DNA of 61,983 nucleotides from Rhina ancylostomus (lineage: Eukaryota): positions 97,764,033 through 97,826,015 of the forward strand of contig JARFYF010000094.1 in NCBI GenBank assembly GCA_030265395.1, read 5' to 3'. This document shows positions 56,176 through 59,400 of the stretch, in pieces. The notes beneath the pieces were generated by a model that worked only from the letters and a program-made list of their open reading frames with translations, searched no databases and was not told where the DNA came from. Position 1 is the first letter of the stretch; the number at the start of each line of letters is the position of its first letter. Made by a program: the position numbers and the translations under genes.

Positions 56176-56281
56176 NNNNNNNNNNNNNNNNNNNNNNNNN
56201 NNNNNNNNNNNNNNNNNNNNNNNNNNNNNNNNNNNNNNNNNNNNNNNNNNNNNNNNNNNNNNNNNNNNNNNNNNNCCTCAC

Positions 56282-56472
56282 CGGGCTGCAGCAGGCGTGC
56301 CCCCTCCAGCCCTCTCACGCAGTTCACCATCTGCTGTTGGAGGTCGGCAGGCAGGGTGGTGCTCAGCCCCTGGGGGTACAGGACGTCCGAGTGAAGCCCC
56401 TCGGGCTCCAACCACACCTGGTGGGGGCGTCCGGGGAACCTCAGCACCTTTGCCTCCAGAGAGGGGCAGTAC
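56282..56472 (-). other. mto1: Isolated 191-nt internal exon of MTO1 (mitochondrial tRNA modification enzyme, GidA/MnmG family); orphan fragment or misassembled insert
   Basis: ttctctccccctccccag|G TAC TGC CCC ... CAG CCC G|gtgagg. Translates without disruption to (R)[63 protein letters not shown](G), matching the MnmG/MTO1 signature PRYCPSIExK...HQVWLEPEG...YPxGLSxxLP. No other MTO1 exon recognised in the window. Confidence 0.9.
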
Positions 56473-59400
56473 CTGGGGAGGGGGAGAGAACGTGGGGTAT
56501 GGAGAGGGGGTGGAGTGGGGGGGACAGATCATTTAGTAGACTTCACGGTCCCCCCGCCGCCAAGGGGGGGCGGTGAGGGGTGAAGAGAACATGGAAAAAT
56601 CTTTTTGGCTGAAGGGCGTGGGATTTTTTTTTGCTAGTTTCTTGCAACATCCTAATTTTATTAGGGAAATCTGCAACCGTTTTCGCCTATTTTCTGCTGC
56701 TCTAAGCCACGTTAGTTTAAATAACAAAAGTGGAGATCTTTAAAAGTTGATCTGAGCTGGAGTATTTTTTAAACATAAAATGCAAATATTTGGCGTTAAC
56801 TCCTTTCTGTGTTTTAAGCACTCACAACTATGTGTGTCGCGGGAGCGTCAACCAGAGATAGACTGGAGAACATTTAACGGTTCTGGTGTATATAAAGTAT
56901 TTTCAACTATGAAATTAAATTATATGCGCTGATTATTAATGTGGATCCACTCTTGTTTTGGAGGGATTTAATAGGGTAAAGAAGGCCGGGACAGTGTGTT
57001 GTAGCAGGATTTAAACATTTATGAGGTGTTACACTGGTGTTCGTTTCACGAACAAATATACAGTTCGAAGTGTAGGAAAGTTTATCCCTTCCCTGAGCCA
57101 GTCAAATACCAGTATCTGCTTAGCAACATCAAACACCGTGTCCCGCACACCGCTTTATTTAGCCACAGCAGATCCTGTGGCTTATGCAAGAATTTAGTTT
57201 TTGCGGCAAGAAAGAAAGTTCGGCACTACACTGAAAGTGAGGTTATGGCCCTGTTATACTCCGGCCGGAAATTAGTTAGTGATTTTTTATCTTTCCTGAC
57301 ACTAGCAGACTTCCAGGCGTGTTATGTTTTTTTGACAAAATCAGACGGCTGGTGTTCTTAGCGGCACAGACGATCAAAGAGATCCTCAGTCAGAGGCATC
57401 TGTTAACTTTTTTTTCCCGAGACTGAGTATGAAACTTTCTCAGCATGTAATAACTTATTGAGTTCTCTAGCCCGCAGTCCCGGCTTGGTAATTCAGTAAA
57501 CTAGAGTCCAGGGAAGTTTGGGTTTTCGTGGAGGATGTTGGATCGGACTTGAAGGTGGGGATGGGGGAGGGGAGAGGTTTGTGGAGAATACTTTTATTTT
57601 CTTAGGCTTTGTATTTTTTTACCTCGGTACTGTTTTTCTACAGATTGTCAAGCGATTTGAATTACCGCCTACATCACATGGATGCAAACGTGTTTCATGT
57701 TAAAACAAAACGTGTTTCCAATTCCAAAACACAGCTTGTGAAGGCGATCCCAGACCGTGCTTCGAGAATCTATACACACTGCGTAATCTGCAAATAGGAT
57801 ACTCGCGTCGCTTACGGTGGAAAAGAAAGTAAACTGTAGTGTGTTACGGGAGGCACGGAGAAAAATAACGTGATGATAAATTGCTGTTTGCTTGTATCTT
57901 TCTACGGGCACACATGAATGGGAGGATTTTATACAGAACCTCGCTCTTTATAACAGCCTTACGATTTCATATTTTTCTTCTAATACCCGAACGTAATGCT
58001 GGTCACAATCCCTCCCCCAACATACAGTCTTATGTCTGCTGTAACTTGCTCTCACTACAGATCGTCCGTTTAAGTCGCTCTGAGTACATACGTCTGCCAT
58101 CTACGTAAAAAGTAGTTTAGACTTTTTTTTCAGCGAGGTGTAGGGTGGCAAAATGGGCTACTAACTCAAACATGTACGTTGTGGCTCCTCAGATTATTCA
58201 CCAAGGGTACTAAAGGGGAACGGAAACCTAGTGCTGCGATATCCGTGGATTTAGGCCGTCGTCCTAAGCTGATTTGCGGCAGGGCTTGAAGCCTGCAGTC
58301 TAGCACACAGCAGACCTACAGTGCAAGAGAGAAAAAAAAGGTAGGTTTTTTTTTCCAAAGGGAGGTGGGAGTTATAACGTGGAAAGAAATTTATGGGGGC
58401 GGGGGTGCTGGAGGAGAGAAACAGAAATACCAGATTTAAACTGGGAGAGAAATAAGGAGAAAGGCGTGAGCAATGTTATACGTGCGAGGAATGTATCCAT
58501 AGAAACAAGAAAGAAAAATGGTTAAAAAGTAGGATCAGATGAGAACACGTGGGGGAGGGATATGGGCATGGCGGTGGGGGGAAAGATCACACAGTTGTTC
58601 AAACATTTCTCTTCAGTCATAGCAAGTATGTTGAAGATAAACAAAGGTTCGCCCAATTTGTAAACACTAACCTTCAGAACGTAAGACAGGCCAGTGAGAT
58701 AATGCAGAAAAAATGTCATCAACGCATATTCACCGTCCAATATTAATTTCATGTGTGAATCTTAAAGGCTTTGGGATATCCAATGTAATAATGCTTGCAC
58801 TACGGTGTGTGTTTCCCCTTTAAAACAGCAAATATTTTTAAAAGTTGGCATTTTTATTTCTGTTTATTCTCATATTATTTGCATCCACCAACCATCACGC
58901 GGAATGACAAACCGGGCTGATAACCGATAGATTTTTGCGTGTTTTTTTAAATCACCCAAAGCTCTAACATGCAGCAGAGAAGGGTGTAGTGTAGATTTGT
59001 GAATGCTGACACGTTTATACTTCAGCCTCCAGGGCTTCACACTGCAGGCTTAAAATAAAATTTGTACATGTGCTTCTGCATTACCTGATCAAGCCTCCAC
59101 CTTGGTGTCGGTTTGTCTGCTGTCTTNNNNNNNNNNNNNNNNNNNNNNNNNNNNNNNNNNNNNNNNNNNNNNNNNNNNNNNNNNNNNNNNNNNNNNNNNN
59201 NNNNNNNNNNNNNNNNNNNNNNNNNNNNNNNNNNNNNNNNNNNNNNNNNNNNNNNNNNNNNNNNNNNNNNNNNNNNNNNNNNNNNNNNNNNNNNNNNNNN
59301 NNNNNNNNNNNNNNNNNNNNNNNNNNNNNNNNNNNNNNNNNNNNNNNNNNNNNNNNNNNNNNNNNNNNNNNNNNNNNNNNNNNNNNNNNNNNNNNNTACG

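Follow-up and report, generated by a model that had tools for sequence, protein, structure and literature searches.

Exon capture, or exon shuffling, proceeds by DNA-level duplication or by retro-transduction. Foreign sequence can also be joined by an assembler: a section of a paper on RNA assembly (PMC6736328) gives 21 as the first k of SPAdes and describes how a word common to two sequences near their ends becomes a chimeric edge when the branches are trimmed or absent. Two further papers (PMC9516821; PMC7757076) deal with vertebrate genomes assembled from short reads, in which GC-rich genes are falsely lost or broken up. The locus described here bears on all of these, with a single exon of mto1 standing upstream of zic4 in a 61,983-nt stretch of Rhina ancylostomus DNA (the window). 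This position of the exon is most likely false and not a real feature of the genome.

The mto1 exon and its surroundings

The exon lies on the minus strand (56472-56282) and consists of 191 stop-free nucleotides divided as 1 + 63 codons + 1, with a polypyrimidine acceptor that terminates in CAG and a donor, GTGAGG, that is followed by 100 N. Its 63-residue translation matches positions 268-331 of the Pfam family GIDA (PF01134; E 3.3e-16), and the PDB matches are seven bacterial MnmG/GidA sequences. The best named protein matches (15 matches among 538 candidates) are with ray MTO1, at 78-81% identity over 63/63 residues, and the alignment places the exon at residues 323-385 of Mobula MTO1 (81% identity). 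The exon is genuine MTO1 coding sequence; the frame, the CAG/GTGAGG pair and the GIDA and ray MTO1 matches confirm the initial annotation, which had described an intact 191-nt MTO1 exon with both splice sites on the zic4 strand. The intron sequence retained at either end of the exon led to the rejection of a processed retrocopy of mto1, as in that annotation.

Table 1. Features around the mto1 exon, in window coordinates.
Feature	Position	Strand	Evidence
First coding exon of zic4, with 322 codons before an N run interrupts it	54891..55856	-	Protein match and start agreement
AG, putative splice acceptor of the initial annotation	55872..55873	-	Sequence only
Pair of CCAAT-type boxes between the foreign piece and the ATG	56066..56082	.	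Motif scan
TG microsatellite and G-run ending the zic4 contig	56139..56175	.	X3 and X6 contigs break here too
100 N, likely a placeholder	56176..56275	.	56152 and 56564 lie 55 letters apart in X2; 23 of these letters are in the window
mto1 splice donor GTGAGG	56276..56281	-	Sequence; 56276 is also the first base of the X1 contig
mto1 coding exon, 191 nt	56282..56472	-	GIDA and MTO1 matches; one place in the assembly by DNA search
Final part (3') of the mto1 intron before the exon, including its pyrimidine tract	56473..56561	-	One X1 contig holds it together with the exon, 0 differences
Shared G-rich word, likely misjoin	56562..56582	.	X1 mto1 contig passes it and then diverges; X2, X3 and X6 zic-side contigs begin in it
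zic4-zic1 intergenic DNA, true	56583..57300	.	Contigs of 4/4 runs compared, none preceded by mto1 sequence

The base composition sets the exon apart, as had been noted from the letters alone: its GC content is 68%, against 50% from zic4 to the gap and 37-40% beyond 56583, and its GC3 is 87% against 53% for zic4. The 288-nt piece 56276-56563 has 67% GC, a value reached in one of 2787 N-free intervals of the same size in the 62 kb, and that interval overlaps the piece itself. Both G-runs of the initial annotation (56156-56175 and 56475-56523) are present, and a motif scan places a G-quadruplex-type motif on the plus strand at 56463-56523.

The neighbouring gene had been called zic4, and the open reading frame 55856-54891 indeed has a ZIC4-like protein of Scyliorhinus canicula as its best match (93% identity, E 7.9e-197). 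A start at 55856 agrees with the N-termini of other ZIC4 proteins and puts the ATG 426 nt from the mto1 exon, the 100 N counted in, close to the 430 nt estimated earlier. At 55862-55860, where ZIC4 normally has its initial Met (MSV/MSM-DALG), the codon is ATA, with no difference listed in runs X2, X3 and X6; because of this codon the start is likely to lie two codons later, at 55856. At 55446, within the same exon, the window has A and all four runs compared, X1 included, have G, which is likely to be a base error or a heterozygous site. A run of 101 N (54788-54888) interrupts the zinc-finger coding region, and a later zic4 exon lies at about 51536-51045.

The CCAAT-type pair is likely to form part of the zic4 proximal promoter, and its position suggests that transcription would start downstream of the foreign piece. 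A ZIC1-type open reading frame is head-to-head with zic4, 6.7 kb past the window end, and is presumably zic1, a name that rests on the N-terminus. Between the two genes, a stretch on the minus strand (L004:4220-4376) has 88-91% protein identity to the start of ZIC4 isoforms modelled in birds (N-terminal part), with a change of frame; it is likely to be either non-coding DNA under deep conservation or an upstream exon used as an alternative. A tblastn search with three MTO1 proteins against the window and 30 kb more, partly N, gave this exon alone at E < 1. A literature search found no report of MTO1-ZIC4 linkage; judged by their titles, the papers retrieved dealt with circular RNAs or lists of genes.

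Runs of exactly 100 N account for 4 of the 14 N runs in the window. The flanks of another of them (53684-53783) overlap by eight letters, as for a placeholder, and the true gap there may be zero or negative. Behind the 100 N at 56176-56275 the true gap is likely to be about 30 nt.

Sequencing runs across the junction

The junction was compared with the assembled contigs of 4 out of 24 listed runs: X1, and the runs X2, X3 and X6 from relatives. X1 contains 79% of the sampled words, and 7/8 of its records are at least 99% identical to the window, so that it may be the assembly's own source. One 317-nt contig of X1 covers 56276-56582 with no differences and then continues for 10 letters that are unlike the window. 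Its first base is exactly 56276, and no loose letters precede it, consistent with a genuine contig edge. The foreign piece, which had been thought to end at 56530, reaches about 56561. The initial annotation had put the misjoin in the G-run 56475-56523 (at about 56520), but in X1 that stretch and the exon form one unbroken sequence; the misjoin lies in the shared word, 56562/56564-56582. The left G-run (56156-56175), proposed as a second misjoin site, is merely the end of the zic4 contig.

There is no X1 contig across 56582/56583, and the contig that covers the exon has a depth of 3.4, against 3.2-3.6 in the flanking contigs, with no doubling. Its unbroken passage through 56582 indicates that there is no second solid branch at that point, with a chance of about 15% that a branch was missed at a depth of about 3.4 (Poisson; 6-29% for depths of 4.5-2.5). 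X1 has no contig over 56583-56615 or 56093-56175, and the species' own zic4 allele is absent from the X1 contigs.

In X2, from a close relative, 56152 and 56564 are connected on one 367-nt contig through 55 letters; 411 are skipped and the exon is missing. The site is bridged in one contig in this run alone among the three runs of relatives, with a short side of 20 letters. X3 carries the exon on a separate 222-nt contig, where the G-rich sequence beside it differs; on its zic-side contig, 56566 is preceded by 57 letters of other sequence. Of these, 30 loose letters are shown, opening with AG, the last two letters of the window before the N run, and closing with AA before the G-run. The zic-side contig of X6 starts at 56566, with other letters before it; the exon had no X6 contig at 88% likeness, which is uninformative. 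A contig with mto1 sequence to the left of the word and zic sequence to its right was found in none of the four runs, X1 being shallow.

The interval 56564-56582 is common to the mto1 intron and the DNA upstream of zic4, because it is found in X1 on the mto1 side and in X2, X3 and X6 on the zic side. These 19 nt are shown directly (the X2 alignment starts at 56564), and, provided that the X3 letters AG and AA directly adjoin the junction, the word is probably 21 nt long (56562-56582) and the true gap measures about 28-32 nt. The 19-nt word occurs once in the assembly; a reversed control also gave one match, so that G-rich words of this kind recur by chance.

Compared with X3, 5/6 of the listed differences in the exon leave the protein unchanged, where 25% synonymous changes would be expected (P = 0.005); the listing covers 6 of the 24 differences in that contig. 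This excess among the differences listed fits a working mto1 gene and is also compatible with a recent copy.

Logan contigs are built with k = 31. An 89-nt contig of X2 that matches 56276-56307 consists of a 59-nt unit and 30 letters, the shape of a cycle at this k. Its letters suggest a GC-rich tandem repeat with a unit that holds the donor and the 26 nt at the end of the mto1 exon, in which case duplicated donor sites may follow the exon in this relative. Such a repeat of the exon 3' end and donor, if present, would block assembly there.

The rest of mto1 in the assembly

The exon DNA is found at one place in the assembly by DNA search and has no repeat match. The initial annotation had expected a true mto1 locus from which this exon was lacking, whereas four queries against the assembly gave no other mto1 exon: the GIDA family search gave one match among seven candidates, which is this exon; the whole Mobula MTO1 gave one match among three candidates, again this exon; GIDA_C, the C-terminal family, gave no match among five candidates; and a conserved 112-residue part of MTO1 gave no candidate. 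The eEF1A family, used as a positive control, gave 30 matches, some as short as 25-35 positions. A 24-nt pattern of the X1-type continuation had no match in the assembly.

EEF1A1, the neighbour of MTO1 in human, offered another way to the native locus. Examination of 15 loci from the 30 eEF1A matches did not find mto1 beside eef1a, and 60 kb around each of two intron-bearing eef1a genes (29,693 of 120,000 letters being N) contained no MTO1 match, the best E value being 0.23. An intact eef1a-type exon lies on a short unplaced contig (C16935:1-1405, 63% GC), a further GC-rich housekeeping gene in scraps, with no demonstrated link to mto1.

Mto1 knockout mice are reported to die before E9 (PMC11874988). 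Because of this embryonic lethality a true loss of mto1 is unlikely, and the native locus is likely to be mostly missing from the assembly. Since four queries gave no other mto1 exon, this one is probably the sole assembled scrap of a GC-rich and poorly sequenced mto1 locus.

Origin of the junction and comparison with known systems

The contigs of the four runs support the assembly chimera that the initial annotation had considered most likely, and an artefact of assembly, summed over the two routes weighed here, is very likely. The findings are those expected of a chimera: X1, the matching data, continues differently after 56582 (one contig, 10 letters); the orthologous site in relatives is without the piece, being bridged in X2 and preceded by other letters in X3 and X6; and the shared word is short, on the order of k (19 nt shown, 21 nt inferred). 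A fusion of the mto1 piece with the zic4 upstream contig through the shared G-rich word at small k is, with good confidence, the route taken. In this event, 286-288 nt of real mto1 DNA (56276-56563) would have been fused by a short-read assembler to the contig upstream of zic4. Coverage at both loci would fall at the G-tracts beside the word; both loci agree with this, as the zic side breaks off in the TG repeat and G-tracts just before it and the X1 mto1 contig stops 10 letters after it. The two true continuations would have been absent, or clipped as tips at a small k of about 21, and the leftover edges condensed into a single chimeric contig, whose larger zic4-zic1 part could then have determined its place in the scaffold, next to a spacer of 100 N.

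An artefact could also have arisen at the same word from a chimeric library molecule, by template switching at microhomology, or in a gap-closing or extension step. The contig evidence that the junction is non-native serves this route equally, one chimeric read may be enough to persist where the depth is about 3, tips with short overlaps are joined by gap closers (PMC6736328), and 19 shared nucleotides are all that is directly shown. Nevertheless, this route is rather unlikely, given that the inferred 21-nt word is exactly the usual smallest k, for which no chimeric molecule is needed. Contamination, in which the exon would be DNA of another organism fused into the contig, would account for GC and GC3 (87%) values far from the local ones and for the missing remainder of mto1. 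It is extremely improbable, however, with ray MTO1 as the best named matches (78-81%), close copies in the relatives X2 and X3, and an exon depth in X1 equal to that of the host flanks.

A real insertion would be a recent DNA-level copy of the mto1 exon, specific to the species or individual, placed in the zic4 promoter by repair at G-rich (G-quadruplex) microhomology, with the native mto1 elsewhere. X1 has no contig of an uninserted zic4 allele, and its 10 divergent letters could stem from the native mto1 copy; the contigs contain no molecule across the zic4 allele of the species itself, which leaves this reading some probability. It is nonetheless very unlikely. The exon shows no excess depth (3.4, with 3.2-3.6 in the flanks), no fork appears in the X1 contig where it crosses the word, and the far end of the piece coincides with a contig edge. 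The mto1 sequence before the word is absent in 3/3 relatives' runs, so that the event would have to be very recent. The exon is found at one place in the assembly, with no repeat match and no mobile-element ends, and a target-site duplication was not seen, the longest match between left and right being 8 nt (the left edge is hidden by N). The alternative raised initially, a captured 5' UTR exon of zic4, found no support and would be harmful: with the exon spliced to the AG at 55872, the ATG at 56330 is computed to open an out-of-frame reading frame of 95 codons that extends 221 nt past the zic4 start, and an out-of-frame ATG would thus be laid over that start.

If the exon is an artefact, the significance of the locus is limited to a warning. 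Chimeras in this assembly can look clean, without any N where the parts meet, and it can lack most of an essential GC-rich gene, as with mto1; claims of gene loss, synteny or exon capture made from this assembly therefore need read support. Were the insertion real, a developmental promoter would offer a dated instance of exon capture, by which the role of G-rich microhomology as a driver could be tested directly, and the out-of-frame ATG of the upstream exon could damp ZIC4 translation.

The exon resembles vertebrate MTO1, a member of the MnmG/GidA family (PF01134), in encoding GIDA positions 268-331, but it holds 63 of about 685 residues, and there is no such gene at the zic4 locus. It shares with captured or shuffled exons the presence of both splice sites in a foreign locus, and differs from them in having no contig support, second copy, target-site duplication or element ends. 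As in the false losses of GC-rich genes (PMC9516821; PMC7757076), a GC-rich essential gene is mostly absent and breaks fall at simple repeats and G-tracts, whereas here one exon survives in a false place and not on an unplaced contig. The small-k de Bruijn chimera, as described in PMC6736328, has in common with this locus a word shared by two loci near ends of failing coverage, the loss of one branch from each and a single chimeric contig; the difference is that the described case concerns RNA assembly and the present one genomic DNA.
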